Below are positions 3,504 through 47,292 of a stretch of 64,000 bases of DNA, piece by piece. Every line of letters begins with the position of its first letter. Position 1 is the first letter of the stretch. This DNA is from Apibacter raozihei. GTDB lineage: Bacteria > Bacteroidota > Bacteroidia > Flavobacteriales > Weeksellaceae. Position numbers and translations under genes: made by a program. Where the stretch lies: positions 2,025,716 through 2,089,715 of the forward strand of contig NZ_CP034930.1 of assembly GCF_004014855.1 (NCBI RefSeq), given 5' to 3'. Below the pieces are notes generated by a model that worked only from the letters and a program-made list of their open reading frames with translations, was not told where the DNA came from and did not search any database.

Positions 3504-3737
3504 GTTGGGAATGGTCTATATTTGAAGGCTAATCACAACAGAAAAACCTTGAATTTGTTTTAATTCAGAGTTGGGAATGGTCTATATTTGAAGGCTAATC
3601 ACAACTGTATGTTTGTAGTCATAATAGGATACATTGTTGGGAATGGTCTATATTTGAAGGCTAATCACAACCAAAACTAGAAACTCCATAATGCCTTAGT
3701 CGTTGGGAATGGTCTATATTTGAAGGCTACTCACAAC
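3504..3737 (+). CRISPR. Type VI-B CRISPR array: 4 repeats of 36 bp (GTTGGGAATGGTCTATATTTGAAGGCTAATCACAAC), 3 spacers of 30 bp
   Basis: Repeats at 3504-3539, 3570-3605, 3636-3671 and 3702-3737. The last repeat is degenerate (CTAATC to CTACTC). The repeat begins GTTG and ends CAAC, is 36 nt with 30-nt spacers, and shares about 25/36 positions including the 3' TAATCACAAC with the B. zoohelcum Cas13b repeat as I recall it. It lies directly upstream of the cas13b-like gene. Confidence 0.92.
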
Positions 3738-3942: not shown

Positions 3943-6900
3943 ATGAAAACTTTAGGGGCTTTATCTTCACATAATTACAATAATAAAAAGTATTATTTTT
4001 CCGGATTACTAAATACGGCACAGTATAATTTTAATTTAGCCTTGCAGGAGGTCAATGACCGGTTAGGGAAAAAGGGAAAAAATCCGGGGAAAACTATGAT
4101 TAAAAATATTTTTGATCAGAAAGATTCTTTTTCAACCCAAGAACGTGCAATGTATTATTTGGAAGAATTTTTTCCCTGGATTTTTTTAGTAATGAAACAA
4201 TCAGGTATAAACATACCTACGGAAGAGCAGGAAACGAAATTGCATAAAGAGGAAATTCAGCTAATACAGGAACATCTTATTTCTTTATATGAATTGCTCG
4301 ATGATTTACGCAATGAACAAACCCATTATATGCACGATCCGGTTATTATTCCGGAAGAAGTTTCGAAAATGCTGGATGCTCTTTTATTGCAGATTCTTAA
4401 AAATACCCGAAAAAAGTGTAAGGACGACGAATACCGTACATTTATAGTTAAAAAGTATCAGGAAGAATTTCAGAAAGAGATTAAAGTGCAGGTAAAAGAT
4501 AGATTTGGTAAAGAAAAAGAAAAGATAGTAACCGGAGAGGTAAAAGAAAACTATGTAATTAACCGATGTTTCAGGAAATGGATTCAAAAAGAAGGAGAAG
4601 AAGAAACACTCAGGTATTCTACCGTACAGGAAGAACAAGGAAAGTATGTTTGGTCTTCCTCAGGATTTGTTTTCTTTTTATCCTTGTTTCTACGGCGTAA
4701 AGAGCTGGAAGATGTAATGAACCATGTACCGTATTTTAAAGACAGTCGAAAGTTACTGTTTTACCTAACAAGAAAAACCTTTTCTTCTTATTGTTTCCGG
4801 GATCTAAGAAAATCCCTAAGGAGCGATTATTCCAATGACTCCCTGCTTATGCAGATGATTGAGGAATTATATAAATGTCCCGGAGAATTATACGAAGTAT
4901 TGCTTAAAGAACAAAAGCAGGAATTTATTGAAGATATAAATGAATATTATAAAGATAATCCGGAGTTTGAAGGCTCTGCAAATGAGGCGCAGGTAATTCA
5001 TCCCGTAATACGGAAACGGTACCAGGATAAGTTTCCCTATTTCGCGCTTAGGTTTATAGATGAGTATTTTAATTTTCCTACACTTCGTTTTCAGCTGGTG
5101 CTGGGGGAATATGTCACAGACCGTAGAACAAAAGAATTACAGGGGACTGCTTTGTTTACAGATAGGGTAATTTCTCAAAGAATTAGTTATGTCGGAAAAC
5201 TGTCTGAAGCGGAAATGAACAAGAAGAGAGAAGGATATACAGAAACCGGATGGAAAGAATATCCCAATCCTTATTATAAGATTGAAAATAATCGGATACC
5301 TCTTTATATTGAGTTTTCAAAAAATGAAGAACTCATTTTTAAAGAAAAGAAATTTAAATATAACACTCTTGCTAAATGGGAAAATAGAGAGATAGATAAG
5401 AGGACAGGAGAATTTAATCAGGTAAACAAGCAAAGAAGAATAACTCAGTTGGAGGAATTTAAAATCGATAATCCTAAGAAAATGAAAACACCGAATGTTT
5501 TCCTGAGTATATACGAACTACCGGCTCTTTTACACGCATTGCTTATTGAGAAGAAAACAGAAGCAGAAATAGAAGACATTATTAAGGCAAAAATAAAAAA
5601 GCAACTGACGGAAATTGCCGAAGGAAGACGGAATTTGTCAGGATTACCTAAAGGGATAAAAAAAATGCGTAATTGTAATTCCGATTTTGAAAAAAAGAAA
5701 TTAATTAGTGATATAGATAACGAAATAAAAAAAGGAGAAAAAATACTAGAAGAAGTACAGCAGTGGCTCAACCCGGTTATTAATAAAAAAGGAACAGGTA
5801 AACAGGAAAATAACAAACCTTTTTTCTCTAATACGTATAGGGGGAAATACGCCACCTGGCTGGCATACGATATCAAACGGTTTACAGGAAAAGATCATAT
5901 ACAAAACTGGAAAGGCTATCAGTTTAGCGAATTACAAACCCTATTATCTTTATATACGTTGCGTAAAGAAGAGCTGAAAAACTTTTTAGAAAAAGACCTT
6001 CAGCTTACATCCCATCCTTTTTTAAAAGAAGCGTTAAAGGCAGTTAATCTGGAAGATTTTATGGGTGCTTATTTGCGTGGCAGGCAGTTTTTTTTAGAAA
6101 AAGCAAAAAAACAAATAGGCATAAAAGGAGTAAAGAAAAGTATTTTTCAGTATTTTGAAGAACGTAAATACAAGATTTATTCTTCTAATTTGGACTATTG
6201 GGAAGAATTGTGGAAACATCCGGTAAATCTGGATAGAGGACTTTTTGATGAGCGGGGTACAGTTTACAATAAAAACAAAGAATTAAATGATCTTCAAAAC
6301 CGGGCAGCTTGGTTTTCTTTTGCAGAAACAAACCCTAAACAGCAGTTTTATCATTTCCCAAGAATATATTCAGATGAGGATATAACAAAACCGGTCACCG
6401 ATAGATATGGGAAAACAAAAGAAAAACTAATACTATTTAAATTATCTCCACAAAAAGGTTTTATGGAGCAGATTCCTTCGGATTTGAAAAAGAAGTATCA
6501 GGAAGATAAAGGAAAGGTAGAGCATCCGGAAGTGCAAAAGGAAAAAAAGTACGAAGAAAAAAAACATCCCGGCATTAATGCTTTTATAAAAAATGCATAT
6601 AAAAACGAACAGAAAATACGCAGGATTTCCCGGAATGATATTTTTCTTTATGAAATGGTAAAATACATGTTAAATAAAATTTCTCCTGCTACAGAATTTT
6701 CTTCTTTGGATAAGGTATGGCTAACCCGGATAGAAAGAGAAAAACAAGCTACAGAAGCCCGTGAACAATCTTTTAAGGAAAAGGGAGATACTTCAGAAAA
6801 TAAAATAAGACAAGATTACCTCTTGTCTTTTCCCATTACTCTCACTCTTTTTAACGATATAATTAAAGAAAAGGTTAAAATAAAAGATATAGGACGTTTC

Positions 6901-7425
6901 CGTAAGCTGGAAAAAGATGAAAGGGTACAGACGATGATTAGCTATTATACTTCCGGTTTGTGGAAGAATGACCAACCCAGCCTAACTATAAAAGAATTGG
7001 AAGCTGAGCTTGAAAGTTATCATAAAATCAGGCTTCAGGAAATATTCAAAGAAGTACATAAGCTGGAAAAAGAAATTTATGAATTTACACCCGAAGAGGA
7101 TAAAAGTAAGTTATTAGCCCGAGAGAGTTTTCCTAAATTTAAATATTATATTTCTTTTTATTTTATACCTAAAGAAGATCAGGAGGTTTTTAACGAAATT
7201 CAATTCGATAAGTATAAAAATTTGGAACAGATACCAGGAAGAAAGCCGGAATACGATCCGTATTATTTGTTAATCTTTATTCGCAATAAATTTGCCCATA
7301 ATCAGCTTCCGGCAGAGCCAATATATAAAACAGCTCTTACTTTTTTGCCTAATAATTTTAATACTTTAGCAGAATATTATCACAAATTATTTATTCTTCT
7401 GAATAATAAAAATTATAACAACTAA
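3943..7425 (+). CDS. cas13b: Cas13b (C2c6), type VI-B RNA-guided RNase
   Basis: 1160 aa. HEPN motif 1 is RNEQTH near aa 120 and HEPN motif 2 is RNKFAHNQ near aa 1120, both R-X4-H, placed as in known Cas13b. The N-terminus (YFSGLLNTAQ..) resembles the Bergeyella Cas13b N-terminus. The gene is adjacent to a VI-B-type array. Confidence 0.9.
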   Translation: MKTLGALSSHNYNNKKYYFSGLLNTAQYNFNLALQEVNDRLGKKGKNPGKTMIKNIFDQKDSFSTQERAMYYLEEFFPWIFLVMKQSGINIPTEEQETKLHKEEIQLIQEHLISLYELLDDLRNEQTHYMHDPVIIPEEVSKMLDALLLQILKNTRKKCKDDEYRTFIVKKYQEEFQKEIKVQVKDRFGKEKEKIVTGEVKENYVINRCFRKWIQKEGEEETLRYSTVQEEQGKYVWSSSGFVFFLSLFLRRKELEDVMNHVPYFKDSRKLLFYLTRKTFSSYCFRDLRKSLRSDYSNDSLLMQMIEELYKCPGELYEVLLKEQKQEFIEDINEYYKDNPEFEGSANEAQVIHPVIRKRYQDKFPYFALRFIDEYFNFPTLRFQLVLGEYVTDRRTKELQGTALFTDRVISQRISYVGKLSEAEMNKKREGYTETGWKEYPNPYYKIENNRIPLYIEFSKNEELIFKEKKFKYNTLAKWENREIDKRTGEFNQVNKQRRITQLEEFKIDNPKKMKTPNVFLSIYELPALLHALLIEKKTEAEIEDIIKAKIKKQLTEIAEGRRNLSGLPKGIKKMRNCNSDFEKKKLISDIDNEIKKGEKILEEVQQWLNPVINKKGTGKQENNKPFFSNTYRGKYATWLAYDIKRFTGKDHIQNWKGYQFSELQTLLSLYTLRKEELKNFLEKDLQLTSHPFLKEALKAVNLEDFMGAYLRGRQFFLEKAKKQIGIKGVKKSIFQYFEERKYKIYSSNLDYWEELWKHPVNLDRGLFDERGTVYNKNKELNDLQNRAAWFSFAETNPKQQFYHFPRIYSDEDITKPVTDRYGKTKEKLILFKLSPQKGFMEQIPSDLKKKYQEDKGKVEHPEVQKEKKYEEKKHPGINAFIKNAYKNEQKIRRISRNDIFLYEMVKYMLNKISPATEFSSLDKVWLTRIEREKQATEAREQSFKEKGDTSENKIRQDYLLSFPITLTLFNDIIKEKVKIKDIGRFRKLEKDERVQTMISYYTSGLWKNDQPSLTIKELEAELESYHKIRLQEIFKEVHKLEKEIYEFTPEEDKSKLLARESFPKFKYYISFYFIPKEDQEVFNEIQFDKYKNLEQIPGRKPEYDPYYLLIFIRNKFAHNQLPAEPIYKTALTFLPNNFNTLAEYYHKLFILLNNKNYNN

Positions 7426-7617
7426 TTGTATATTAAATTTTAGTAATTTAACAGGTGGCTTTATAAATTAAAAATGGTTGTATGTATAAATGATTAAAAA
7501 TTAAATAATAATCGTTTATCATCGTCTCTAAATTCCTCAAAATAAAGAATTAATTAACACAAGAGTTGTAATAAATTTGTAAAAATCATAGTATTTGATA
7601 AATTAATTCAGATTTTA

Positions 7618-7648
7618 TTGTTTAATTTCACATAAAATACTATATTTG
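7618..7648 (+). promoter_or_regulatory. Candidate Bacteroidetes sigma-A promoter (TTG at -33, TATATTTG at -7) placing the TSS at the a1 repeat of the ncRNA
   Basis: TATATTTG at 7641-7648 matches the TAnnTTTG -7 consensus, and a TTG sits about 20 bp upstream. The predicted start is near 7654, exactly where the a1 inverted repeat begins. Confidence 0.4.
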
Positions 7649-7653
7649 TTCAG

Positions 7654-7873
7654 GGTTAAAAAATACCTTGCTTTTCTGAATAAGAAAAAGATGATGTATC
7701 GTCATCGGTGAGCTATTGCTAGACATTCGGCACTACCTGCAATCTTTATGGGGAGAGTAACTACTATACGTATGGTTACGGTTCTCCTCTCCACGAGTTT
7801 AACCATACGTATAGTAGTTACTCTCTGGAGTTGATTGATATAGTCCTTAGAAAATACGAAGGTTTTTTAACCT
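7654..7873 (+). ncRNA. Retron-like msr/msd non-coding RNA: a1 (GGTTAAAAAATACCTT) and a2 (AAGGTTTTTTAACC) inverted repeats flanking small msr hairpins and a perfect 26-bp msd stem-loop (7753-7825)
   Basis: a1 at 7654-7669 and a2 at 7859-7872 are reverse complements apart from a 2-nt bulge. The arm GAGAGTAACTACTATACGTATGGTTA pairs perfectly with 7800-7825 across a 21-nt loop. A small hairpin GATGA(N7)TCATC sits at 7691-7707. The layout directly upstream of an RT gene is the canonical retron arrangement. Confidence 0.6.
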
Positions 7874-7874
7874 G

Positions 7875-7918
7875 AAAGCCCTATTTTATTGATAAATAAA
7901 ACAGGGCTTTTATTTTTA
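7875..7918 (+). terminator. Hairpin AAAGCCCTATTTTA..TAAAACAGGGCTTT plus T-run between a2 and the RT start codon (possible attenuator)
   Basis: A 14-bp stem with one mismatch, followed by TTTTATTTTTAT, about 25 bp before the ATG at 7944. Confidence 0.4.
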
Positions 7919-7943
7919 TGATCATTAATTATAGAAAAGGCTT

Positions 7944-9464
7944 ATGTCTGAAAAACTAACGAAACAGCAAATTTACGACCGAATCAGAGCTACATCCAAA
8001 GATAGTTATATTTTAGAGGAAATGCAGCGATTAGGATTTTGGGAAAAAGCAGATAGTCCTCAAATTCCGGAAATCTTCATTGAAAATGAAACCAGATTAC
8101 TTCAGGAGCTCAACCAATTACTGGATAAAAATAAACAATACAGTGATCAGCTGAGCATGCTTAAGTCCATGCGAAAGGTCCGCATGAAAAATGCAAAAGA
8201 AAAAAGAGAAGTTACCCGGCAGAATAATAAATTAAAAGCGTTGGAAAAGGCCGAACGATGGCTGAAACTTCAACAGGAACAGGTTCTCTTTTTAGGAAAA
8301 GAAGTATCTAAAGGCTTAAATAATACAGAGCCGAATGTTAATTCCTTAAAAAAATTTAATTTACCCGTATTTCATTCAGTAGTTGAATTTGCTGGATATA
8401 TGGAAACTGATTTACCGTCATTACGATATTTATTATATCAGCGAAAGGTTTCTACCATAAACCACTATCATACATTTGAATTACCTAAAAAATCGGGAGG
8501 AAAAAGAAAAATTTCAGCTCCTAAATCAAGGATTAAAGCACTTCAGCTTCAGGTGCTTGATAAAATTTTAAAAAATATTCCTGTAAATGATTACGTACAT
8601 GGATTTATTCAGGGAAAATCCATAGTATCAAATGCTCAACCGCATGTAAATAAAGATATTGTAATCAACATGGATCTAAAAGATTTTTTTCCATCAATAG
8701 AATACAAAAGAGTTAAAGGACTATTTTATAAACTGGGATATTCTGAACAAATTTCAACAATGTTGGCACTGGTATGTACGCAATCAGATACCTATGAGGT
8801 GAACATGGACGGAGTTACTTATCATGTTCAGAAAGGAGCCCGATTTCTGCCTCAGGGTTCACCTGCAAGTCCTGCAATCAGTAATTTGATAGCCTACAAG
8901 CTTGATAAACGAATTAAAGGATTAGCAGAGCGACTGAATTTTACTTACACCCGTTATGCAGATGATTTAAGTTTTTCTACAACCAATGAAAATCAAAAAA
9001 ATATCCGTCAATTACTATTTTTTGTAAATCAAATAGTTGTAGAAGAAGGGTTTAAGGTTCATCCGGAAAAAACTCATATCATGAGAAAAGGGAATTTACA
9101 AATGGTTACCGGAATAGTGGTCAATCGAAAATTAAATATAGAGAGAAAAAAATTAAGAAATTTCAGAGCCTTATTACACAACTTAAATTTAAATGGATGG
9201 AAAGATCAGAAGTGGGGAAATGCTGTCCATCTTATTCATGCAGTGGAAGGATATATTCGTTTTGTTAAAATGGTTAATCCGGAAAAAGGTAAAGAATTTG
9301 CAGAAAAATTAGCAACCATAATAAAGAAACAGGGATATCCGGAAATATCGTGTCAAAAATATAACTCAAATGATACTACGGAAAAAACAACAGCTTCTAT
9401 AACAAAACCAGAGACTAATCAAAAAGAAGAAAATGACAGCCAGGACTGGTGGGATATTTTTTAA
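7944..9464 (+). CDS. Reverse transcriptase, retron/Abi-like, with a roughly 130-aa N-terminal coiled-coil-like extension
   Basis: RT motifs are visible in the translation: ELPKKSGGKRKISAP (motifs 1/2), MDLKDFFPSI (motif A), LPQGSPASPAISNL (motif B'), YTRYADDLSF (YADD motif C) and VTGIVVNRKLN (the retron-type VTG region). There is no maturase, endonuclease or Cas1 domain. Confidence 0.85.
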   Translation: MSEKLTKQQIYDRIRATSKDSYILEEMQRLGFWEKADSPQIPEIFIENETRLLQELNQLLDKNKQYSDQLSMLKSMRKVRMKNAKEKREVTRQNNKLKALEKAERWLKLQQEQVLFLGKEVSKGLNNTEPNVNSLKKFNLPVFHSVVEFAGYMETDLPSLRYLLYQRKVSTINHYHTFELPKKSGGKRKISAPKSRIKALQLQVLDKILKNIPVNDYVHGFIQGKSIVSNAQPHVNKDIVINMDLKDFFPSIEYKRVKGLFYKLGYSEQISTMLALVCTQSDTYEVNMDGVTYHVQKGARFLPQGSPASPAISNLIAYKLDKRIKGLAERLNFTYTRYADDLSFSTTNENQKNIRQLLFFVNQIVVEEGFKVHPEKTHIMRKGNLQMVTGIVVNRKLNIERKKLRNFRALLHNLNLNGWKDQKWGNAVHLIHAVEGYIRFVKMVNPEKGKEFAEKLATIIKKQGYPEISCQKYNSNDTTEKTTASITKPETNQKEENDSQDWWDIF

Positions 9465-9481
9465 TTATAAATAGTAGATAA

Positions 9482-12400
9482 ATGAAACTAGTTAAGATAA
9501 GTAAATTATATTTCAATGAAGGAAATTCTAATAAAGTTTATGAAATTGAACTGTTAGAATTAACCGCATCAGAATGCCTGGTGAATTTTCGGTATGGAAA
9601 AAGAGGAAGCAGACTCAAAGAAGGAACTAAAACGCCGGAAGTTGTTTCTCACAATGAGGCGGAAAAAATATTTCTTGCAGTAGAAAAAGAAAAATTAAAT
9701 AAGGGGTACCTTCCGGAAAAAGAACATAAAACAGAGCTATCTATTTCTGAAAGAGTATTTCCGGATTCAAAAGAAGGAATTATACTGCATAGGTTACAAG
9801 ATGCTGTTAACGGAACTCAGAGTTTCAATACACCATGGAAAACCAGTCGGGTGATATGGAAAGCAGGCTGTTATAATATAAAGCAGGCAATACCTTTTAT
9901 CATTAAGCTTGTTTTTAAAGGAGATGAGATGCAGACCTATGCTTCATTATGGGCATTAAATAAATTAAAATCAGTAGAAGCCAAAGAGTTATTCTATCAA
10001 TATTCTTTTTCGAATAAAAAGGAATATATCAGAAATATAGCCATCGAAGGGTTTTTAACTATCGCAGGTGAAAATGAACTCTTGGAGATGGAGGAAAAAC
10101 TATTACAGAGAGTTTCGGCAGAAATAAAATATTACTGGCAGATTAAAGATTATGAAGCTCTTTATCAGGAGCTTTTAAAGGATTATGAAAAAGATAAATT
10201 AACTTATATAACAGTCCTTTATCAACTTAATAAGATAAGGCCGGTATTAACCGATTATTTTTTGAAATTTTTTACAATCTGCAAGTTTCAGCCTCCCTGT
10301 TTTAAACAAATCCGTTCTGTATATAAACTGGCACAGGCTAGGAATGATTATCCGGTAGTAGCAGTATTATCATATCGGATAGAAAAAGAGCAAGGCAGTT
10401 TTAACGCATCTTACAATGATGGCTTTGATTCAGTCAAAACAGAATATCTGCCTAGTATAGACGAGGGGGAAGAAGAAATTGCAAAACAGGCATTTTCAAA
10501 ACAAACCCAAGCTTATTTTCGGAAAAATGCTCTGTATTTTCTCAAAAATACAGCCAAAGATGGAAAGAACGAATACTTAAAATTAGCAGTAAATCTTTTG
10601 TTGCAGTATAAAGAATCGGATTATTCTCCAGAACAAGAAATACCGGTATCTAATTATGGTACTTATGATTATGATAAAGAAATTTATCGTTATACTTTGA
10701 TTGATTATCCGGAGTGTTCAGAATCCGTTTTATTATTTACCATTTTATTTGGTCATTCGCCTCAGGTGTATTTAAATAATCATTCAAGGTTTATAAAAGG
10801 TAAAAGAGAAGTATATAGTCGCAGTTATTATTTTACATCCCAGATTTCAGAACATGAGGAAGATTTTTTAGAAAATACAATGGAAAGTTCAGAAGAAGAA
10901 GAAGAGGAGTTTGTTCTGCAGGAAAGTTTAAACAATGATTCTGACAAAGGAATAGTTGGAACAATCAAAAACTTTTTTAAAAATATATTAGGAGGTGAAA
11001 AAGAATTAAGACCAGAAAATAATTTACTTTCGGAACATGATGACGAACCGGAAGATAGGGATGAGAATATTACAGAATCCTTTGAAGTTGAGCCTGTAGA
11101 AAATATAAGTGATGATGAATTTGAAGAACCGGTTTTATCAGCTGTATGGGTAAGAAATGAACTTTATCCGGAATACTGGGATCAGTATCCTCAGGCTTAC
11201 ATACAATTATTATTCAAAGCAAAGATGACTCTTATCCATCAATTTGCCTTAAATAATTTGTCAGCTCATCCGCAGTATCATGATCTCTTACAGCGATTAA
11301 GTAAAGATGACATATTAGATTTATTAAACAGTGATTTCTATATACCTAATAATTTTGGACAAAGAATTATTGAAAATAAAGAAAATGATTTTAAAGAAGA
11401 CAGAGAATTTATTGCTAAAGTTTTAAATTCTAAATCAGCCATTTCAAGGAGCTGGGCATATGAAAATGTACAGTCCAACACAAAATACTATTTCGAATCG
11501 ATTGAGTTTACATTACTGGTATTGTTTAATTCAGTAAAAGATTTTAAAGAAGAGATCAACATTCTGCTTCATAGTACATCATTTGAGACAGAACGAAAAA
11601 AAGCACTGATAGGTAAGACTATTGCCGAATTACTCATTTTGTCAGATAGTAAAGAAAATAATGATATTGCTGAAGAAGTAATATCCAGGCTTAATTGTTT
11701 AGCTTCCACTGAATACGATTGTATTAACTGGCAGATTTTAGAGCAGTTGTTTTCATCAACGTTGAAAGCTAACCATATATTAGCCAGTTCAATCATCATG
11801 AAAAAATATGAAAATAAATCAATAATTGATTTACCATTATCTTTAATTGATTCATTTCTCAAGTATGAAAATAAAGACATAAGATCTAATGGCCTCTTAT
11901 TATTGAAAAAATATTCGGATACTTATCTCGTTAATAATATTAATTTTATTTTAAGTCACACGGAGTCTCAATATGAAGAAGTAGTAAAAGAAATGGTATC
12001 TCGTTTGGTTCAACTGATACGTTATAGCAAAACAACCGCTAATACAGCCTTGCGTTATTTAGTTTATGTACTTATGAGAAAGGAGAAGTTTTCCGGAGCA
12101 CATGCATATATTAACTCATTTGTTACTAATGAGTTAAAATCTAATTGGAACGAAGGATTAGCTCCAAATGATATTACTAAACTTATTCATTCGCAATATC
12201 GTAAAAGTCAAATAACTGGATATGAAATTCTTTTAAATTATAAAAAGTCAGATGATTTTACACTGAAACAGATTATTTCATTCGGAAATCATGAAATTCT
12301 AGCTTTAAGACAATGGTGTTGGAATTATTATAAAGAAAATATAAGCCGTATAAAAACCGAAAAAACAAAAGCGCTTAATTTGCTTAATTCCAGATGGGAG

Positions 12401-12910
12401 GATACCCGAAATTATGCTTTTGAGTTTTTCAGATCTGAATTCAATGAATCTGACTGGGACATGGATACTCTTTTGAGTATTATAGATTCAATTCGCCCGG
12501 ATGTTGAAAATTTTGGAAAAGAGTTAATAAAGATATATTCCGGGTCCAATTGGGATATAAAGTTTTTAACCCGTTTAAGTGAGCATCCGAGTGTACAGGT
12601 GCAGGCGTTTATAACTGGTTATTTAAATCAATACGTAGCCGGCAGGCCGGAAATAATCGGTCAGCTAACTAATTATTTTCAGACAACGCTTTCACAGGTA
12701 AATAAAGCAAGAGTTGCTAAAAACAGAATATTTAAATTTTTGCATCAGGAATCAATAAAAGATTATGAAACAGCTAAAATAGTCACTCCGCTCTTAGATT
12801 TTTTATCTGCTCAGTCAACCATACAGGATAGAGCCACATGCATCGATATTTTGACAAATATTAAAAGCTTGTATCCTCACATAGAAATGAATCTGGAAGT
12901 TAAAAATTAG
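9482..12910 (+). CDS. WGR-domain protein with a long alpha-helical repeat region (MolR-like, probably DUF4132) and an acidic low-complexity linker
   Basis: The N-terminal 80 aa (KVYEIELLE..FRYGKRGSRLKEGTK..EAEKIFLAVEKEKLNKGY) fits the WGR-domain pattern. About 1000 aa of helical repeats follow. A poly-E/D segment lies at about aa 465-545. The start is 18 bp after the RT stop. Confidence 0.6.
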   Translation: MKLVKISKLYFNEGNSNKVYEIELLELTASECLVNFRYGKRGSRLKEGTKTPEVVSHNEAEKIFLAVEKEKLNKGYLPEKEHKTELSISERVFPDSKEGIILHRLQDAVNGTQSFNTPWKTSRVIWKAGCYNIKQAIPFIIKLVFKGDEMQTYASLWALNKLKSVEAKELFYQYSFSNKKEYIRNIAIEGFLTIAGENELLEMEEKLLQRVSAEIKYYWQIKDYEALYQELLKDYEKDKLTYITVLYQLNKIRPVLTDYFLKFFTICKFQPPCFKQIRSVYKLAQARNDYPVVAVLSYRIEKEQGSFNASYNDGFDSVKTEYLPSIDEGEEEIAKQAFSKQTQAYFRKNALYFLKNTAKDGKNEYLKLAVNLLLQYKESDYSPEQEIPVSNYGTYDYDKEIYRYTLIDYPECSESVLLFTILFGHSPQVYLNNHSRFIKGKREVYSRSYYFTSQISEHEEDFLENTMESSEEEEEEFVLQESLNNDSDKGIVGTIKNFFKNILGGEKELRPENNLLSEHDDEPEDRDENITESFEVEPVENISDDEFEEPVLSAVWVRNELYPEYWDQYPQAYIQLLFKAKMTLIHQFALNNLSAHPQYHDLLQRLSKDDILDLLNSDFYIPNNFGQRIIENKENDFKEDREFIAKVLNSKSAISRSWAYENVQSNTKYYFESIEFTLLVLFNSVKDFKEEINILLHSTSFETERKKALIGKTIAELLILSDSKENNDIAEEVISRLNCLASTEYDCINWQILEQLFSSTLKANHILASSIIMKKYENKSIIDLPLSLIDSFLKYENKDIRSNGLLLLKKYSDTYLVNNINFILSHTESQYEEVVKEMVSRLVQLIRYSKTTANTALRYLVYVLMRKEKFSGAHAYINSFVTNELKSNWNEGLAPNDITKLIHSQYRKSQITGYEILLNYKKSDDFTLKQIISFGNHEILALRQWCWNYYKENISRIKTEKTKALNLLNSRWEDTRNYAFEFFRSEFNESDWDMDTLLSIIDSIRPDVENFGKELIKIYSGSNWDIKFLTRLSEHPSVQVQAFITGYLNQYVAGRPEIIGQLTNYFQTTLSQVNKARVAKNRIFKFLHQESIKDYETAKIVTPLLDFLSAQSTIQDRATCIDILTNIKSLYPHIEMNLEVKN

Positions 12911-12915
12911 AAATT

Positions 12916-14577
12916 ATGATAGTAGATTATAAATATACAGACAATACATACATAGATAACTCTTCTGCCGGAACAAAAATGAGCTTTGCTCCGGATTTAC
13001 TTCGTGAACCTACTTTTTTTACAGGTAAATTAAATAAAAAAGTAGCTTTTAGAGAAGCTATTTCTGCATTGCATGACGTAGTGGTTTCAGATTTACGATT
13101 CAAGCCTAAAGACAAAACAGAATATAAAGCCTGGGTAGCGGAGCAGGAAAAGATTTGGTTAGGGGAATATATGGCTGAGTTTGAAATTGAAGAAGTTCGG
13201 TTTCGTATAAATGAAATTAAAAAAGAACTTTCAGAATTATACGAAGAAAAAAATAAAGTCTTGGCTCCTTTCAATCAGGCTAAACAGAAGTACTTTGATT
13301 ATTTGTATCAAAATGATCCCGATGCATGGTATGTTTTAGATCCCGTTATAACCGTACATCCCGATGAAGTTTTTTTTGAATGTTTCAGTCAGGATGAATC
13401 TTCCTATGGAAAATTAAGCTGTAATTATAATGTTTTTAATGAAATAAACGAATTTAAATGCGGTACAACGAATATTGATTATTCCGCAGAATTATATGGT
13501 GAATTTCAAAAAATAAGAGGATATAAAGATACACAGTTTAGTATAGATTCTTCCGGTTTTGAAATGAAAACGACTTATGAAGAGGTTTACAAGGAAATTA
13601 AAATAGATTTGCCCGATTCCTGGGTGAGAGGTTTTTTGCAGGTAAGCACAGCCATGACATTACCTTCAGCCGTTTTCAATTTGCATCCTATGGATATTTA
13701 TAGCATTTGCCAGTATCTGAGAAGGTTCAAAGAAAAAGAAGGTCCGAGAGCTTTACGTTTTTTATTAGAACCTGATAAGCCTGTTAGATTGGTAATAGAA
13801 CCCTGGGGTAAAATTTTGACATTTTACAGATCGGTTTACCATGGGGACAGTAAAAAAGATATACGTGTATGGGGCCGAAGACGGTTATTTATTTTAGAAC
13901 GATTGATACCTATAGCTAAGAGTTTTAAGGTTTTTTTACTGGGGTCGGGAATGCCTTCGTTTTATGTGGCGGATTTAGGGGATATGTCTTTTACGTTAGG
14001 ACTTTCAGGCTGGACGGCTAATGATTGGAGCAGGTTAGGAAATTTCGATTTAATGGCTCCAAGAAACGAAGTGGATATACTGACAAAAAAAAGAGTTTTC
14101 AATAGACTTAAAGAAAGTTGGTTTGACACATCTCAGCACTTAGCTGAAAAACTAAATTTACATTCTTCCGTAGTTCAATCAGTATTGACTTCTTATACAC
14201 AAACGGGAAATGTAATTTATGATTTAAACTCGGGCGTGTACAGAATTCGTGAATTATCCAACAAGCCACTAGATATAGAGGATTTACGCTTTACCTCGGA
14301 GCAGGAAAAATTAGCTGAAGAATTGGTGAATGAAGGAAGAGTTAAAAATCTAAAATTTAAAATACAAGACAAAAAATTATTTTTAACCGCAGAAGTATAT
14401 GATAAAAACTCAGTATTTCATACCTCAGCTGTAATAGATAATGATCAGCGATTAATTGATGCTCAATGTGATTGTGATCATTTTAAAAGGAATCGTCTAA
14501 GAAAAGGACCCTGTGAGCACATATTGGCAATTCGTTTACAATATCAAAAAAATAAAATTTACGCTAATAAAATGTAA
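12916..14577 (+). CDS. SWIM zinc-finger domain protein (YehQ-like)
   Basis: The C-terminus has CDCDHFKRNRLRKGPCEHILA, a C-x-C-x(n)-C-x-H SWIM signature. The start is 6 bp after the WGR-protein stop, consistent with an operon with the RT. Confidence 0.6.
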   Translation: MIVDYKYTDNTYIDNSSAGTKMSFAPDLLREPTFFTGKLNKKVAFREAISALHDVVVSDLRFKPKDKTEYKAWVAEQEKIWLGEYMAEFEIEEVRFRINEIKKELSELYEEKNKVLAPFNQAKQKYFDYLYQNDPDAWYVLDPVITVHPDEVFFECFSQDESSYGKLSCNYNVFNEINEFKCGTTNIDYSAELYGEFQKIRGYKDTQFSIDSSGFEMKTTYEEVYKEIKIDLPDSWVRGFLQVSTAMTLPSAVFNLHPMDIYSICQYLRRFKEKEGPRALRFLLEPDKPVRLVIEPWGKILTFYRSVYHGDSKKDIRVWGRRRLFILERLIPIAKSFKVFLLGSGMPSFYVADLGDMSFTLGLSGWTANDWSRLGNFDLMAPRNEVDILTKKRVFNRLKESWFDTSQHLAEKLNLHSSVVQSVLTSYTQTGNVIYDLNSGVYRIRELSNKPLDIEDLRFTSEQEKLAEELVNEGRVKNLKFKIQDKKLFLTAEVYDKNSVFHTSAVIDNDQRLIDAQCDCDHFKRNRLRKGPCEHILAIRLQYQKNKIYANKM

Positions 14578-14931: not shown

Positions 14932-15492
14932 ATGAAAAAATTTTTTTTAACCCTCTCAAGTATTTTTATCATAAGCTTTTTGCCGGCACAGGTGAGAGGT
15001 TATGGACAAAAATACAAAAAACCAAAAATTTCAAATTCCACGAATAATTCAAATAAAAAGGATAATATAAATGATCCCTTCGCTGCTGAAGATTGGGCAG
15101 ATGCTAAAAAATTTGCTGATAAAGTGGCAGGTGCTTCAGGAAAATATGTATTCCTTCAAAAAAAAGAATCGTCTACTCCAGGAGTCATAGTTTTAAGGTA
15201 TATTCCGACAAGTATCAGCAATAAAGATTTCTATATAAATAAACCTTGTGCTGAATGTATGGACATAGAATTCAAAAAGAATAATTCTTCTAAATATAAT
15301 TATGCATTTAGCCATGTCTGGGGAAACTTTGCAGACTTATTCCCTGTTTGGAAATCTATATTTAGTCCTAATGCTCAAATGTCTGATTATTCAGTGAGCG
15401 ATCAAAACGTATTGGTTCAATGGCGAACGTCTTACGGTCAAAATCAGGTAACTTTTGGAAGGCTGGGTACCGCCTGGTTTATTAAAATATAA
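14932..15492 (+). CDS. Hypothetical secreted protein (signal peptide)
   Basis: An N-terminal hydrophobic signal peptide; no recognisable domain. Confidence 0.45.
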   Translation: MKKFFLTLSSIFIISFLPAQVRGYGQKYKKPKISNSTNNSNKKDNINDPFAAEDWADAKKFADKVAGASGKYVFLQKKESSTPGVIVLRYIPTSISNKDFYINKPCAECMDIEFKKNNSSKYNYAFSHVWGNFADLFPVWKSIFSPNAQMSDYSVSDQNVLVQWRTSYGQNQVTFGRLGTAWFIKI

Positions 15493-15520
15493 CGTTAGAT
15501 ATAATAGTTAAAATTATAAA

Positions 15521-15565
15521 AATACCCGATTGAAAATTTATACATAAATTTTCAATCGGGTATTT
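15521..15565. terminator. Bidirectional terminator: perfect palindrome ACCCGATTGAAAATTTA..TAAATTTTCAATCGGGT
   Basis: A 17-bp perfect inverted repeat between convergent genes (the 14932 ORF and proA), flanked by T-runs. Confidence 0.65.
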
Positions 15566-16819
15566 TTATATTCGTATCTGACCATTGCCTTCAATGATCC
15601 ATTTATAAGTGCACAGTTCATCTAAGGCCATAGGGCCACGGGCATGCATTTTTTGAGTACTGATACCGATTTCAGCTCCCAGACCGAATTGGGCTCCGTC
15701 TGTGAAAGCAGTAGAGGTGTTTGAATATATGCAGGCAGCATCAATCAGTCTTTCAAATTTATGTATTATTACTACATTTTCACTAATTATGGCTTCACTA
15801 TGTTTGGAACTGTAAGAAGATATGTGTTGAATAGCCTCGTCAAAACAAGTAACGGTCTTAATTGCCATTTTATAATCCAAAAATTCCGTCCCATAACTTT
15901 CCGCATTTGCTTCTTTTAATAAATCAGCTGGATAGCTATCATATAAAGCCTTGTGAGAAAGCTTATCCGCATAAATAATGACATTCTTTTCCTGAAGTTT
16001 TTTACATAATGTAGGTAAATCTTTAATTCGTTCTTCATCTATGACCAAACAATCCAATGAATTGCAAACACTAACTTTTCGTGTTTTGGCATTGAAAATT
16101 ATATTTTCACCTTTTTCAATATCTCCATCTTTATGAAAATAGGTATGGCACACACCTGCGCCGGTTTCAATAATTGGAATTTTTGAATTTTCTCGAACGA
16201 AATTTATGAGTTCTTTACCTCCTCTGGGAATAATCAGATCCACATAGTTTCTGGCATTCATTAATTCCTGAGTAGCATAGCGTTCATTAGGTAGCAGCGT
16301 ACATATATCAGAATTATAACCTTCATCTGCAATGACTCTTCGTATTATATTTACGATAGCTGTATTAGAATTTATGGCATCGGAACCTCCTTTTAATATG
16401 CAGGCATTTCCAGATTTAAGGCATAAAGAGAAAACATCAAAGGATACGTTGGGCCTGGCTTCATAAATGATTCCGATTACTCCGAAAGGAACTGAAATTT
16501 TTGAAATTGTTAAGCCGTTAGCCAACTTTTTTCCCATAAGTTTTTTATTAGAAGGAGTTGGTAGTGAGACTACGTTTTCAATATCTTTAATGATATTAAA
16601 AATTCGTTCTTCAGTAAGTAAAAGCCGGTCATATTTTGGATTAGAACGAGACATTCTATCCAAATCTTTTTGATTTTCAATTAGTAAATAAGAAATATTT
16701 TTTTTGGTTTCCTCAATGAGTTTGTTAAGGATGCCATTAATCTGAGTATCACTCAGGAGATTTACCTGCCTGCTTGCCAGCAATGAATCTTCGAACAGGT
16801 TATTTAGTCTGGAAATCAT
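15566..16819 (-). CDS. proA: Glutamate-5-semialdehyde dehydrogenase (gamma-glutamyl phosphate reductase)
   Basis: 417 aa and ALDH-like. The stop overlaps proB by 4 bp. The sequence family is typical ProA. Confidence 0.85.
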
Positions 16820-22900: not shown

Positions 22901-24319
22901 ATGATAATGAAAAATTTTTTTTACTACCTATATGAACAAGGTTCATATTATAAACATAGATTATCTATGTGGATTTTAGCAATTTCAAGTTGTATTATTT
23001 CATTAAATGCTAATTACTTGAAAGGTCAGGTATTTTTGGAAGAATACCTGAAAGAAGGGCTTAATAATAATGAAAGTATAAAGCAGCAAACTTTTCTTTT
23101 AAAAAAAAATATGTATTCGCTAAAAGAAGCTCGTGCTCTATTTTTTCCAACTTTATCACTTGAAGGAAATTATTCTTACGCGAAAGGAGGCAGAGCTATA
23201 GAACTACCCATAGGAGATTTACTAAATCCTATTTATTCTACGTTAAATGAACTCTCTACCAGTGCGCAATTTTCAGAGGTAAATAATATTAGTGAACAAC
23301 TCAATCCAAAAAACTATTATGACAGTAAAATCAGATGGTCTCTTCCCATAATTAATTCGGAAATCTACTACAATCAAAAGATTCAAAAATCAGCTTTTAA
23401 CATGCAACAACTAGAATTACAAATATATAAGAGAGAGCTGGTAAAAGATATTAAAATAGCTTATTACCAATTTTGTCAGATGACAGAAGAAATAAATATA
23501 TATGAGAATGGAGTAAAACTAGCAAAAGAGGGATCACGAATAAATGAATCTATGTTCAAAAATGGTAAAGTAAATAGATCAGTAGTGTTGAGATCAGAAA
23601 ATGAAGTAAGCAAAAATGAAGAAAATTTATTTTCAGCAAAACTAAAATTAAAAAATACTCAGGCTTATTTTAACTTTTTACTAAACAAACCTTTTGATAG
23701 TCATATTAGCTTCATTGATTTCGAAATTTCAGATATAAATAAGGATGAAATTAATGAAGATAGCTTAGGAGAAAGAGAAGAACTTCAAAAACTTGATTTT
23801 GCCAGTAAAATATACAACTATGAGAACCAGAGTGCAAAAAGCTATTATCTACCTAAAATGAACGCTTTTTTTGATATAGGTTCGCAAGGTATCGATTGGA
23901 GATTTAATCAAAATACTCGCTATTATATGGTGGGAGTATCACTAATTTGGAAATTGTCATTAGGAGGAGAAGAACTATATAAAATAAAAAAGTCCAAAGC
24001 AAATTTGGAAATAATAAAATCAAAGCAAGATGAAGCAGAAAGGCAGCTTAAGCTACAACTATTGACAGCTATAAACTCATATAAAGAAGTCGTCAACAGT
24101 TTTTATGCTATACAAAAACGACTATCAGCAGCTCAAAAGTACTATAAAGAAGTTGAAAAGCAATTTAAAGAAGGAATGGCATTATATATAGAATTTCTTG
24201 ATGCACAAAATCAATTTATCAATACGAATCTGTTATACAATATCTCGTATTACGATATAAAAATAAAATACGCTGAAGTAGAGAGAGCTAGTGCCAGTAT
24301 TAACTTATCAAACTATTAA
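22901..24319 (+). CDS. TolC-family outer-membrane efflux protein
   Basis: 472 aa. It is the first gene of the TolC-MFP-RND operon and has coiled-coil repeats. Confidence 0.75.
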   Translation: MIMKNFFYYLYEQGSYYKHRLSMWILAISSCIISLNANYLKGQVFLEEYLKEGLNNNESIKQQTFLLKKNMYSLKEARALFFPTLSLEGNYSYAKGGRAIELPIGDLLNPIYSTLNELSTSAQFSEVNNISEQLNPKNYYDSKIRWSLPIINSEIYYNQKIQKSAFNMQQLELQIYKRELVKDIKIAYYQFCQMTEEINIYENGVKLAKEGSRINESMFKNGKVNRSVVLRSENEVSKNEENLFSAKLKLKNTQAYFNFLLNKPFDSHISFIDFEISDINKDEINEDSLGEREELQKLDFASKIYNYENQSAKSYYLPKMNAFFDIGSQGIDWRFNQNTRYYMVGVSLIWKLSLGGEELYKIKKSKANLEIIKSKQDEAERQLKLQLLTAINSYKEVVNSFYAIQKRLSAAQKYYKEVEKQFKEGMALYIEFLDAQNQFINTNLLYNISYYDIKIKYAEVERASASINLSNY

Positions 24320-24322
24320 AAA

Positions 24323-25375
24323 ATGAAAAAAATAGAAATTATAATATTTCCTGTTATTATGCTTTTATTTACTGCATGCGCCAGAAATAAAGATCAACAC
24401 AAAGCAGATTTTAAGGAAAATATGGAAACAATTCCTGTTAAAATTATAGGTATAGAGAAGAAAAGTATAATTCCTGAAATTAAAGCTTATGGAATAATAA
24501 AAACACAAGAAGATGTAAAGATGTCTTTTAATATGAATGGAAGAATAAAGCGGATGTATGCAAGACAAGGAGAGTATGTACGAAAAGGACAACTCTTGGC
24601 AGAGTTGGAGCTTACAGAATTAATGGCACAAGTTGATCAGGCAACTGAAAGTTATAACAAGGCGGTCAGAGATTTCAAACGACTTCAGAATTTAAGAACA
24701 GATTCAGCAGCTACTCTTGAACAGATACAAAATGCTGAAACAACCATGAATATAGCTCGCGAATCTTTAAAAATATTAGCATATAATAAAGCGTATACAG
24801 TGATAAAAGCACCGGAAAATGGAGTTGTTTTACAAAAGATGAATAATGAAGGAGAGTTTGTTAATGCTGGGAGTCCAGTTTATATGGTGAGCTCTGAAAA
24901 AAATAATGAATTTATTATAAAAGTTTCCTTAACAGCCAACGAACGTTTGTTAGTAGCAGTTGGAGATTATGCAGAGATAGAATTGGAAGGAAAATTGAAT
25001 AATAAATTTAAGGGTAAAGTTAAACATATTGCCCATAATGCAGATTATTCCACAGGTTTATATACTGTAGATATTCAAATAAACCAAAATTCCGAAAGCA
25101 TATCCGTAGGGTTGTTTGCTACAGTAAATATTATTCCGGAAAGATCAATTGCCTATTACACTTTACCCCTTGAATGTTTAATAGAGGGTAACAATAAGAA
25201 AGGTTTTGTATATGTACCCAAAGAAAACAAAAGGGTTGAAAAAGTAGAACTGGATATAGACTTCATTGATAAAGGCTTATTTTATTTCAAAAAAAAGCCG
25301 GAGTATATTAATACAGTAATAAAAGAAGGTGCAGGATTTTTATCCTCCGGTTCCAGGGTGTCAATTAACCAATAA
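24323..25375 (+). CDS. Efflux RND periplasmic adaptor subunit (HlyD/MFP family)
   Basis: 350 aa with a lipoprotein-like N-terminus and coiled-coil/lipoyl-like regions. It sits between the TolC and RND genes. Confidence 0.8.
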   Translation: MKKIEIIIFPVIMLLFTACARNKDQHKADFKENMETIPVKIIGIEKKSIIPEIKAYGIIKTQEDVKMSFNMNGRIKRMYARQGEYVRKGQLLAELELTELMAQVDQATESYNKAVRDFKRLQNLRTDSAATLEQIQNAETTMNIARESLKILAYNKAYTVIKAPENGVVLQKMNNEGEFVNAGSPVYMVSSEKNNEFIIKVSLTANERLLVAVGDYAEIELEGKLNNKFKGKVKHIAHNADYSTGLYTVDIQINQNSESISVGLFATVNIIPERSIAYYTLPLECLIEGNNKKGFVYVPKENKRVEKVELDIDFIDKGLFYFKKKPEYINTVIKEGAGFLSSGSRVSINQ

Positions 25376-25397
25376 GAAATACAAACTATTATTCACT

Positions 25398-28300
25398 ATG
25401 AATTCATTTTTAAAATTTTTCTTAGAAAGAAGTTCTCTGACTTTGCTTATTGTTTTAGGAATCTTAGCTTTAGGATGGACAACGTTGAACAACATGCCCA
25501 GAAGTGAAGATCCTGAAATCAAATATGCTTATTATGTTATAGTTACAGCAATGCCGGGAGCAATGCCTAATGAAATTCAGGAACGAATTGTAAAACCGAT
25601 AGAAGATCGTTTTTACGAACTGGAGGATGTGAAAGAAATTAAAGCTCAGATATGGAGTGATATTGCAGTTACTACTATAGAATATAAATACGGAGTTGAT
25701 GGAGATAGTAAATATCAGGAAGTTGTAAGAGAAATGGAGATTGTTAGAAATCAAAAACTTCCGAATAATGCATACATCCTTAGCATCGAACATTTTAAAA
25801 ACAGTGATGTCAATATTTTTCAACTGGCCTTACAATCCAAAGGAGCAGATTATAAAGAATTAGAAAAATATGCTGTAAAGTTAAAAGATGTTTTAAGAAC
25901 AGTAGAGGGTCTTAAAAATATAAAAACTCACGGTTATCCTGAGCAGGAAATAAGAGTTGAGCTTGATATTAATAAAATTGCCAATTATCATATTCCGGTC
26001 TCTCAAATTATTAATTATTTAAAACGTGAAAGTTTTAATATATCAGCAGGTAACGTAGTATCGGGAAATTCAGTTTTTAGTGTAAAAGCAGGTAATAAAT
26101 ATCAATCAGTAGAGCAGATAGCCAATACCATAGTTTATACTAAAAATAAGACAAACCTAAAGCTTAAAGATATTGCAACCGTAAAAAGAACATATAAAGA
26201 AGAAGACCACATAATCAGGCTTAATGGTCTGCAATCGGCTTTGGTTACAGCATCATTAAAAGAAGGGTATAATATAGTATCAGTCGCAGATGAAGCAAAA
26301 GATAAAATATCCTCCTTTGAAAAAAACTTACCAGATACCATTAAACTTGAAACAAACTTTGATCAATCGAGTAGTGTGGAAAAAAGATTAAAACAGTTGG
26401 GTGGTGATTTTATAATTGCTCTTTTTTTGGTAATAATAACTCTTCTGCCTTTAGGCTTCAGATCTACGTTGGTTGTTATTATATCCATTCCTCTGTCATT
26501 AGCAATAGCTTTAGTAGCTTTAAACCTGTTAGGATACAATCTTAATCAATTAAGTATTGTAGGATTGATTATTTCACTGGGTATATTGGTAGATGATTCC
26601 ATTGTTGTTAACGAGAATATTGAAAGGACGGTACGTTCTGGTCTACCTTTAAAAAAAGCTATTTTAACCAGTACCCATCAAATATCTTTTGCTGTGATAG
26701 GAGTTACGGCTACCTTGATTATAGCATTTATGCCTATAGTTTTTTTACCCGAAGGCACCGGTGAATTTATAAGATCATTGCCTATGGCAGTAATCCTGGC
26801 GGTGTCAGCTTCCTTATTTGTATCCCTGGCCATTGTCCCGTTTCTTTCAAGTAAAATATTAACAGATAAAACTAATCCTCAAGGCAACATATTTTTGAGA
26901 GCCGTAAAAAAAGGAATAGATTTAACCTATAGTAAAATCATCAGAATTTCTTTAAAATATCCCGTACGGGCAGCTCTTTCAGTCATGCTTATTACTCTTT
27001 TAGGTTTTTCTGTTGTTCCCATGATGGGATTTTCACTATTCCCTAAATCGGATAAACCCCAATTTTATATGGAAATTGAAACAACTCCAAATTCATCATT
27101 GGAATACACAAATTTAAAAGCCAAAGAAGTTGAAAAAGCCTTAGCAACAGAAAAAGACATTCAATATTTTACCACTAATGTAGGAAAGGGTAATCCCAGA
27201 GTTTATTACAATGTCAATCCTATGCAGACTATGAATAATTATGCTGAGATATTTGTTCAATGCTATGAAGATATTTCCGTAGAGGAAAAAACTGAAATTA
27301 TAAAAAGACTGCGAAAGAAATTAGAAAATGTATCAGATAGTAAAATCAGAATAAAAGAATATGAACAAGGACCCGCATTAGAAGCACCAACTGCTATACG
27401 GCTATATGGAGAGAATATAGATACACTACAGGCATATTCGGTTAAAATTGAAGATATAATAAAAAAGGTTGAAGGTACTAACTATGTTCAAAATCCAATA
27501 CTGATAACAAAGACAGGCTTACAAATTATTATAAACAAAGAAAAAGCAGCTCTGTTGGGAGTTAACCCTACCAATATAGATCTTGCGGTACAAATGGCAA
27601 TTGCCGGAATTGATGCCGGAGAAATTGAGTTGGAATATGTAGAAAATAAATCAGGTATAAGATTGACTTTACCCCGAAACAAACAACAAACTGCCGAAGT
27701 ATTTGACAAAATATACATCCAATCTGATACTGGAGAATCAATTCCCTTTCAATCTGTAGCAACTATAGTTTTTGAAAAAACTCCAAGTACACTTACACGT
27801 ATCAACAAAGAACAATATACCCTTATTACAGCTTCTGCTATAGAAGGATACTTATATGATAATATAAACAATGAAATTATTGAAAAACTAAATACGTTAG
27901 ATTTACCAAACGGTTATAGATGGTCAGCTGCAGGAGAAAAAGAAAATCAACAAAGAGCATTTAACGGTTTTGGCATAGTGTTGATTATTTCTTTTATAGC
28001 TTTTATATCAGCCTTGATTTTAGAATTTAAAAATTTTAAATCCATTCTTATTGTATTATCTGTTATTCCTTTAGGAATTATGGGAGGAATATGGGCACTA
28101 TTTATTACGGGACACCCGCTCTCATTTATTTCAATGGTAGGTTTTATAGCTTTAATAGGTATTGAGATAAAAAACTCGATCCTTCTGGTTGATTATACCC
28201 ACTACTTGAGAAAAGAAGAAAAAATGTCCGTCACAGATGCTGTTGCACATGCCGGTGAAGTTAGGTTTATACCTATATTTTTAACCACTATGACTGCTGT

Positions 28301-33113: not shown

Positions 33114-33185
33114 TACTCAGGCAGGGAATTGAACCCTAATCTCCAGATTGAAAATCTGATGCACTTGCCATTATGCTACTTGAGC
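33114..33185 (-). tRNA. tRNA-like gene, Glu(TTC)-like cloverleaf with one A-C mismatch in the acceptor stem; possibly a pseudo- or foreign tRNA
   Basis: The minus-strand sequence is GCTCAAG-TA-GCAT-AATGGCAA-GTGC-A-TCAGA-TTTTCAA-TCTGG-AGAT-TAGGG-TTCAATT-CCCTG-CCTGAGT-A. It is AT-rich and does not look like a typical host tRNA-Glu. Confidence 0.35.
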
Positions 33186-47283: not shown

Positions 47284-47292
47284 AAAATAATT

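Follow-up and report, generated by a model that had tools for sequence, protein, structure and literature searches.

Type XIII retrons constitute one of the classes established in the retron classification of Mestre et al. 2020 (PMC7736814), in whose Table 1 they are defined by the combination of a clade 10 reverse transcriptase (RT) with two partner proteins, one bearing a DEDE motif, a winged helix and a SWIM zinc finger, and another one with a WGR domain and HEAT repeats. This class, catalogued in 2020, is that of the first retrons discovered, and its members include Mx162, Mx65, Sa163 and Ne144 (PMC7736814). In a 2026 survey of metagenomes (SPIRE), type XIII appears as the third most abundant retron group and as the one with the broadest phylum range. 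Here, we describe a retron locus of Apibacter raozihei, contained in a stretch of 64,000 nt of contig NZ_CP034930.1 (assembly GCF_004014855.1, positions 2,025,716 to 2,089,715, forward strand). This whole stretch is referred to as the window, and all positions below are counted along it.

The closest described systems are the type XIII retrons Mxa1/Mx162, Mxa2/Mx65, Sau1/Sa163 and Nex2/Ne144, with which the Apibacter locus shares the RT profile, the DEDE/winged-helix/SWIM protein (with its CxCx12CxH ligands) and the WGR plus HEAT/ARM partner. The Myxococcota loci of this type also follow the same plan in their non-coding RNA (ncRNA), consisting of two pairing arms, a1 and a2, and a long msd stem. 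Multicopy single-stranded DNA (msDNA) has been demonstrated for the myxobacterial members, whereas the Apibacter retron is known from its sequence alone. Outside type XIII, the retrons Eco1/Ec86 (II-A), Ec78 (I-A) and Eco2 (I-C), whose mechanism has been solved, follow the same tripartite logic of ncRNA, RT and effector, in which the msDNA acts as a phage-sensitive guard restraining the effector. Their effectors, an N-glycosidase, a PtuAB ATPase-HNH pair and a Toprim protein, respectively, are unrelated to the WGR-HEAT and DEDE-SWIM proteins found here.

The locus (7618 to 14577) is almost certainly a complete and intact type XIII retron, and this identity and the generic mechanism of retrons, taken jointly, are very probable. 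A promoter-like box, the ncRNA, a terminator hairpin and the genes for the RT, the WGR protein and the SWIM protein follow each other on the plus strand, with only 17 nt between the RT and WGR genes and 5 nt between the WGR and SWIM genes. Each of the three proteins matches over its full length the corresponding PADLOC profile (RT_XIII, WGR_XIII and SWIM_XIII), and these models derive from the classification of Mestre et al. 2020 (PMC7736814). A first-pass annotation of the window had described a retron-type operon with an ncRNA, an RT and two co-transcribed partner genes, these encoding proteins of 1142 and 553 aa; this description is borne out by the features collected in the table below and by the PADLOC matches. 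An entry from A. raozihei matches the SWIM protein with 100% identity, and the RT is 99% identical to a protein of Apibacter sp. HY039 that NCBI names retron RT.

Table. Features of the retron locus and of the adjoining CRISPR-Cas13b segment, with their positions in the window
Feature	Position	Strand	Detail
Type VI-B CRISPR-Cas segment	3434-7527		4,094 bp
CRISPR array	3504-3737		four 36-nt repeats GTTGGGAATGGTCTATATTTGAAGGCTAATCACAAC (the last one with one change), three 30-nt spacers
cas13b	3943-7425	+ (same strand as the retron)	NCBIfam, 8.5e-235
Probable Bacteroidetes-type promoter of the ncRNA	7618-7648	+	TTG at 7618-7620, 20-nt spacer, -7 box TATATTTG at 7641-7648
a1 arm	7649-7669	+	pairs with 7859-7877
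Candidate branching (priming) guanosine	7670	+	first unpaired base after a1, in near-invariant CCTTGC
msr region, two small hairpins	7672-7677/7683-7688 and 7690-7696/7700-7706	+	second hairpin GATGATG...CGTCATC; consensus fold of 19 sequences
msd region, template of the predicted msDNA	7732-7844	+	composite stem-loop of about 31 bp, five helices
Perfect 26-bp inverted repeat inside msd	7753-7778 with 7800-7825	+	
a2 arm	7859-7877	+	after invariant ATACGAAGG
Intrinsic-terminator-like hairpin and U-run	7873-7919 (hairpin 7873-7912)	+	AAAGCCCTATTTTATT/AATAAAACAGGGCTTT; between ncRNA and RT start codon
Retron RT, type XIII (clade 10 by profile score), 506 aa	7944-9464	+	PADLOC RT_XIII
WGR and HEAT/ARM-repeat protein (Mestre cluster 216), 1142 aa	9482-12910	+	PADLOC WGR_XIII
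DEDE/clamp-like/winged-helix/SWIM zinc-finger protein (Mestre cluster 114), 553 aa	12916-14577	+	PADLOC SWIM_XIII

The non-coding RNA and its terminator

The ncRNA spans roughly 230 nt (7649 to 7877) and is preceded by a box of the form TAnnTTTG, the consensus of the sigma-A promoters of Bacteroidetes. Of the 21 aligned Bacteroidota loci reaching this far, nearly all have the box in an equivalent position, its two middle bases varying, and transcription of the ncRNA would start from it. The promoter that had been proposed ahead of the ncRNA is supported by this conserved -7 box, TATATTTG in Apibacter, and not by a generic sigma-70 promoter scan, which showed no enrichment (49 found versus 42 expected) and is unsuited to Bacteroidota.

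The structure of the RNA is supported both by its stability and by covariation. An RNA of 236 nt folds with -85 kcal/mol (z = -8.3 versus dinucleotide shuffles), and the consensus fold of 19 Bacteroidota homologues comprises 61 pairs, 27 of them with compensatory changes. In this alignment 96.2% of the cells are paired, a share that drops to 41-50% once the partners are shifted by 1-3 columns, and none of 500 shuffles reaches the observed values on any measure. Within the msr, hardly any change is seen in helix 3 and three compensatory pairs occur in helix 2, while in helices 6 to 8 of the msd 17 pairs are changed on both sides. The sequence of the msd stem varies among genera, the pairing being always retained. 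Together with the perfect inverted repeat of the msd, these results confirm the structured ncRNA with a1/a2 flanks and a 26-bp msd-like stem of the first-pass annotation.

The a1 and a2 arms share an exact 10-nt core (7654-7663 with 7863-7872) and covary among genera, as in the pairs GGTTAAAAAA/TTTTTTAACC, GTTCGGAA/TTCCGAAC and GATAGATCCTT/AAGGTTTATC; the mean pairing energy is -11.2 kcal/mol for cognate arms versus -8.7 for non-cognate ones. Across the 21 Bacteroidota loci, the msr holds the near-invariant sequences TACCTTGC, GATGATGTTTCGTCATC and GCACTACCTGCAATC and, downstream of the msd stem, an invariant GGAGTTGAT...ATACGAAGG is followed by the terminator hairpin. The TTGC around G7670 is invariant in these same loci, and 185-191 nt separate this base from a2 in 33 of the 34 loci scored, the exception containing a run of N. 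By analogy with other retrons, G7670 would act as the priming guanosine, and reverse transcription would extend over some 110-135 nt. The plan reaches beyond Bacteroidota, since CCTTGC also lies about 80 nt upstream of a long stem in loci of Cyanobacteria, Myxococcota, Acidobacteriota and Verrucomicrobiota, and CCTTGC, GGAGTTGA and ACGAAGG, which the Myxococcota type XIII loci share with the Apibacter one, flank a stem of 12-22 bp upstream of the RT in other phyla. These common motifs and this layout point towards the ncRNA structure that Mestre et al. describe for type XIII. A search of the whole window with Rfam 15 at the gathering threshold returned one tRNA and no retron RNA family, and a permissive scan of 7600-7950 detected no msr family of retrons, its matches being chance hairpins (e.g. 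let-7).

Between the ncRNA and the RT, the hairpin with its U-run (-18.6 kcal/mol, z = -5.8) would act as an intrinsic terminator. It is found in every aligned Bacteroidota type XIII locus (within L001 to L041), with five compensatory pairs (helix 10), whereas nothing comparable could be seen in 12 loci examined from other phyla. The conservation of this terminator suggests that the ncRNA is a separate and abundant transcript, the RT and the effectors being produced by read-through; in Bacteroidota, the ncRNA would thus probably be far more abundant than the read-through mRNA encoding the three proteins.

The reverse transcriptase and its two partner proteins

The RT matches RT_XIII with 591 bits (4.4e-178) over residues 2-502, the next model reaching 313 bits, and the 25 PADLOC matches listed for it, out of 48, are all retron RT models. 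It also matches Pfam RVT_1 (2.8e-25) and passes, with 235.5 bits, the cut-off of 235 of the NCBIfam model retron_St85_RT. Although the palm and fingers core of RVT_1 is common to the RTs of DRT/UG, Abi, group II intron and DGR systems, the Apibacter protein stays far below the cut-offs of both the Drt2 model (44.1 versus 390 bits) and the group II maturase model group_II_RT_mat (66.9 versus 300). The retron-type motifs noticed at first pass are all present: SNAQPH (NAxxH), RYADD (YADD) and QMVTGIVVN (VTG) are invariant in 16 homologues. Two further regions are conserved, a strongly conserved N-terminal extension of about 130 residues (with QQIYDRI and LEEM..LGFW) and, after a variable linker, the C-terminus (residues 499-506), where an invariant WW lies within the motif DWWNIF. 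The HEAT solenoid of the partner protein may use both the extension and DWWNIF for docking.

The WGR protein matches WGR_XIII over residues 1-1141 (8.6e-287), as well as the profile HEAT-ARM_XIII. The first-pass annotation had labelled it as a WGR/DUF4132, MolR-like protein and had proposed a check of the domains with profile searches. Pfam finds the WGR domain at residues 13-81 (2.5e-6, 28 bits versus a cut-off of 22) and in the neighbouring protein the SWIM finger, both above their cut-offs, so that this part of the prediction stands; the DUF4132 part does not, since neither the 1142-aa protein (at E<=10) nor any of 35 family members (at E<=1) shows a DUF4132 or MolR-type domain. What follows the WGR domain are HEAT/ARM repeats, and among the family members WGR is found in 35 of 35 and HEAT_2 in 27 of 35. 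The protein is thereby set apart by its domain content from the MolR/YehI-type proteins of Escherichia coli, with which it shares an N-terminal WGR domain.

In the AlphaFold2 model of this protein, with a predicted local distance difference test (pLDDT) score of 84.5, the WGR domain (1-76) consists of a beta-sheet and a helix (pLDDT 76-90) and is followed by a solenoid (97-373), a beta insert (385-446), a disordered segment (468-554) and a second solenoid (563-1130). Beyond the WGR domain, the type XIII protein thus consists of a HEAT solenoid of about 1000 residues. The Foldseek neighbours of the model are scaffold solenoids (CAND1, SF3B1, karyopherins and the PP2A A subunit), sequence and profile searches of the PDB return only designed or natural HEAT repeats (including alphaRep), and no catalytic domain is recognisable in the model. 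WGR domains bind DNA ends in PARPs, a likeness that serves as a lead for the type XIII protein, which has the N-terminal WGR domain in common with PARPs and does not carry their catalytic domain. The WGR-HEAT protein is a probable scaffold or msDNA-binding subunit and, by analogy with PARPs, its WGR domain may act as a sensor of the msDNA. According to Mestre et al. (PMC7736814), the RT co-evolves with the WGR-HEAT partner of cluster 216 and not with the SWIM protein.

The SWIM protein matches SWIM_XIII over its full length (2.5e-232) and, as had been predicted, ends in a SWIM zinc finger, which Pfam places at residues 507-539 (7.7e-5, 22.6 bits versus a cut-off of 19.6). Its zinc ligands, C518-x-C520-x12-C533-x-H535, and an acidic motif, D142-x7-D150-x4-E155-x32-D188-x38-E227, are invariant in 37 close homologues and in 16 translated proteins from five phyla, the most conserved segment of the protein being that around the acidic motif (residues 151-250). 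More than 5,000 proteins belong to this family. The DEDE motif resembles that of the IS256 and Mutator transposases (Mestre et al., PMC7736814). The structure model shows a single DNA-clamp-like domain, a winged helix and the SWIM finger, described as DNA-binding modules; Foldseek placed PhuS on top of the matches of this model, with TM-scores below 0.15, and these matches were disregarded. Searches of the PDB with the sequence and with the family profile gave no match, and no solved structure matches either of the two partner proteins by sequence as a counterpart. The SWIM protein is the probable effector of the system.

The association of the three genes was followed in 80 related loci, obtained by a scan of one genome per species in which flanks of up to 7 kb were examined. 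The order RT-WGR-SWIM occurs in 33 of the 41 best-matching loci, all but one of these loci belonging to Bacteroidota, and the triplet is accordingly conserved as a unit in other genomes, a point that the first-pass annotation had named as a check. Of the eight remaining loci, three break off inside the RT and another three inside the WGR or the SWIM gene; a seventh shows only the C-terminal half of the WGR gene followed by the SWIM gene, and in the intact locus L029 both genes are missing within 7 kb. Contrary to this Bacteroidota order, in which the ncRNA comes first, the loci of Cyanobacteria, Myxococcota, Acidobacteriota and Verrucomicrobiota show the order WGR-SWIM-ncRNA-RT. Mestre et al. 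(PMC7736814) had likewise found the SWIM gene on either side of the RT. Among the three proteins, conservation across loci is highest for the SWIM protein (55-72% identity, and still 55-58% between Bacteroidota and Cyanobacteria or Myxococcota), followed by the RT (43-63%) and the WGR protein (24-46%). A set of cyanobacterial loci (L047-L051, L056, L064, L068, L072-L075 and L077-L080) has RTs 44-46% identical to that of Apibacter and no WGR or SWIM homologue within the flanks, several of whose contigs end short; the partners of these RTs may lie farther off or may have been replaced.

Proposed mode of action and alternative readings

By analogy with other retrons, the RT would bind the folded ncRNA and prime the reverse transcription of the msd from the 2'-OH of the unpaired G7670, giving rise to a branched RNA-DNA molecule, the msDNA, whose DNA part would fold into a hairpin of 26-31 bp. 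The particle formed by RT and msDNA would then dock on the WGR-HEAT scaffold, where the WGR domain would touch an end or a junction of the DNA and the solenoid would wrap around the RT. In the absence of infection, the scaffold would keep inactive the SWIM protein, likely a Mg-dependent effector derived from a nuclease or a transposase. Upon infection, a phage factor would alter the msDNA and the SWIM effector would damage nucleic acid, aborting the infection. The docking fits the co-evolution of the RT with cluster 216 reported by Mestre, and we put forward the docking on the WGR-HEAT protein together with the restraint and phage-triggered release of the SWIM effector as a tentative scheme, plausible rather than probable.

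A more speculative and rather unlikely extension would be that the SWIM protein, by means of its clamp-like domain and winged helix, is loaded onto the msDNA hairpin or guided by it, acting as a new kind of nucleic-acid-processing effector, and that the terminator of the ncRNA works in Bacteroidota as a read-through switch coupling the dosage of the effector to the state of transcription. If so, an msDNA-guided SWIM effector would be a property of the whole type XIII class and not of the Apibacter locus, and type XIII may work unlike any of the retrons whose mechanism has been solved. In the same way, the features of the structure models (the solenoid scaffold and the clamp-like, winged-helix and SWIM modules) may serve as leads for the whole class.

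Several points weigh against the reading proposed here. The membership of the RT in clade 10 was judged from profile scores as a proxy. In the searchable literature we found no experiment on mechanism or phage defence for any type XIII retron, the papers found being of classification or annotation. As for the SWIM protein, its AlphaFold2 model was built from a shallow alignment (37 sequences, 63-72% identity), and residues 1-249, which include the DEDE core and the stretch 133-249 around it, have a pLDDT below 50; a Pfam scan of 37 members of its family at E<=1 detected no nuclease or transposase family. Since the DEDE fold is not modelled and there is no family match, its assignment as an effector is drawn from its conservation and from the motif argument of Mestre et al. 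Finally, type XIII shows a moderate correlation with the 16S of its hosts (0.78), consistent with vertical inheritance, and non-defence roles have been suggested for some such retrons (Mestre, PMC7736814). The retron census preprint does not name type XIII in its main text.

In the best-surviving alternative, type XIII would not be an abortive-infection system but a vertically inherited, domesticated module of the DNA or RNA metabolism of the host, with a role in repair, recombination or regulation. Besides the correlation with 16S, the suggestions of non-defence roles and the literature without a phage-defence experiment on the type, this alternative draws on the conservation of the SWIM protein across phyla, which is atypical of fast-evolving defence effectors, on a setting of housekeeping genes, and on the 99% identity with which strain HY039 has kept the retron. 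However, each retron type tested so far has been reported as a phage-defence system, the retron abuts a site of gain and loss of CRISPR-Cas13b, as is the behaviour of defence islands, the defence annotation of PADLOC includes type XIII, and the SPIRE survey finds it the most broadly distributed retron group across phyla. A purely domestic role is for these reasons considered improbable.

SWIM fingers occur in plant proteins derived from Mutator transposases. This, together with the likeness of the DEDE motif to that of the IS256 and Mutator enzymes proposed in the retron classification (PMC7736814), would suggest reading the SWIM/DEDE protein as a transposase that is active or was so until recently, and the cassette as a mobile element carrying an RT. 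Nevertheless, the gene is present in a single copy in the window and at the same site in two strains, the RT and WGR genes always accompany it and no terminal repeats bound it, and it matches no transposase family. The modelled domains are clamp-like, winged-helix and SWIM, with no RNase H-like core, residues 1-249 being not confidently modelled. A transposase is thus very improbable, and the retron effector remains the favoured role for this protein.

The first-pass annotation had taken the locus for a candidate new retron or defence-RT subtype with an unreported effector pair of WGR/DUF4132 and SWIM proteins, for which it speaks that Pfam and NCBIfam by themselves give only generic names (RVT_1, WGR, SWIM and 'retron St85 family'). 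However, the exact trio was already defined in Table 1 of PMC7736814, the type XIII models match over the full length of the proteins, DUF4132 is absent from all 35 members of the WGR family, and a 'retron XIII' had previously been called in a Flavobacterium genome paper by routine PADLOC annotation. Novelty fails because the operon matches an already named retron type, a finding that had been named beforehand as one telling against it: the trio is not a novel system, being already catalogued and called by standard defence annotators, and a new subtype deserves hardly any credence.

Genomic neighbourhood

The first-pass annotation had also noted that the locus adjoins Cas13b. The gene is indeed there, with about 190 nt between its stop codon and the promoter of the ncRNA, and with no cas1 or cas2 and no csx27- or csx28-like gene beside it. 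The implied link between both systems, however, is not conserved. Apibacter sp. HY039 is collinear with the window and 98.8-99.0% identical on both flanks, with 38 bp replacing the whole 4,094-bp CRISPR-cas13b segment, and its retron is intact, 99% identical and located at the same chromosomal site; no Cas13b homologue was found in any of the 80 related loci within the flanks examined. Because it is absent from HY039, which keeps the retron, and from these 80 loci, Cas13b is an unrelated neighbour, a strain-specific indel at a variable site, and not a partner of the retron. A single functional unit of retron and type VI-B CRISPR-Cas13b, in which for example the RT would provide cDNA for spacer acquisition, could appeal to the shared strand, the short distance and the lack of cas1 and cas2 and is nevertheless scarcely credible, given these absences and the fact that this RT belongs to a retron clade and has its own ncRNA. 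With its sharply defined ncRNA, the Apibacter locus represents a clean, compact and low-GC example of a type XIII retron, for which the sister strain lacking Cas13b offers a natural comparison, and it would be a convenient model for the function of the WGR-HEAT and DEDE-SWIM partners.

The flanks of the retron carry housekeeping genes (a permease, an MFS transporter and proA/proB-like genes). An open reading frame of 186 aa downstream of the SWIM gene (14932-15492, starting with MKKFF) was considered as a fourth component and rejected, since neither Pfam, PADLOC nor NCBIfam gives a match for it and the related loci contain no homologue. It is followed by a perfect 20-bp hairpin (15520-15565), which scores as a terminator on both strands, and by a convergent gene of the aldehyde-dehydrogenase family (15566-16819) next to a gene with amino-acid-kinase and PUA domains, these two being possibly proA and proB.

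Farther along the window, an RND efflux operon (OEP, HlyD and AcrB families) lies in the region 22901-28454, and the minus strand of 44773-53133 holds an ordinary exopolysaccharide or capsule cluster of low GC content (23-29%), with Wzc-like AAA/CbiA, Poly_export, glycosyltransferases of families 2 and 4 and an EpsG-type polymerase. The tRNA is located on the minus strand at 33114-33185, and a UvrA-family protein of 941 aa is encoded at 36113-38938; like the efflux operon, both belong to a housekeeping context.

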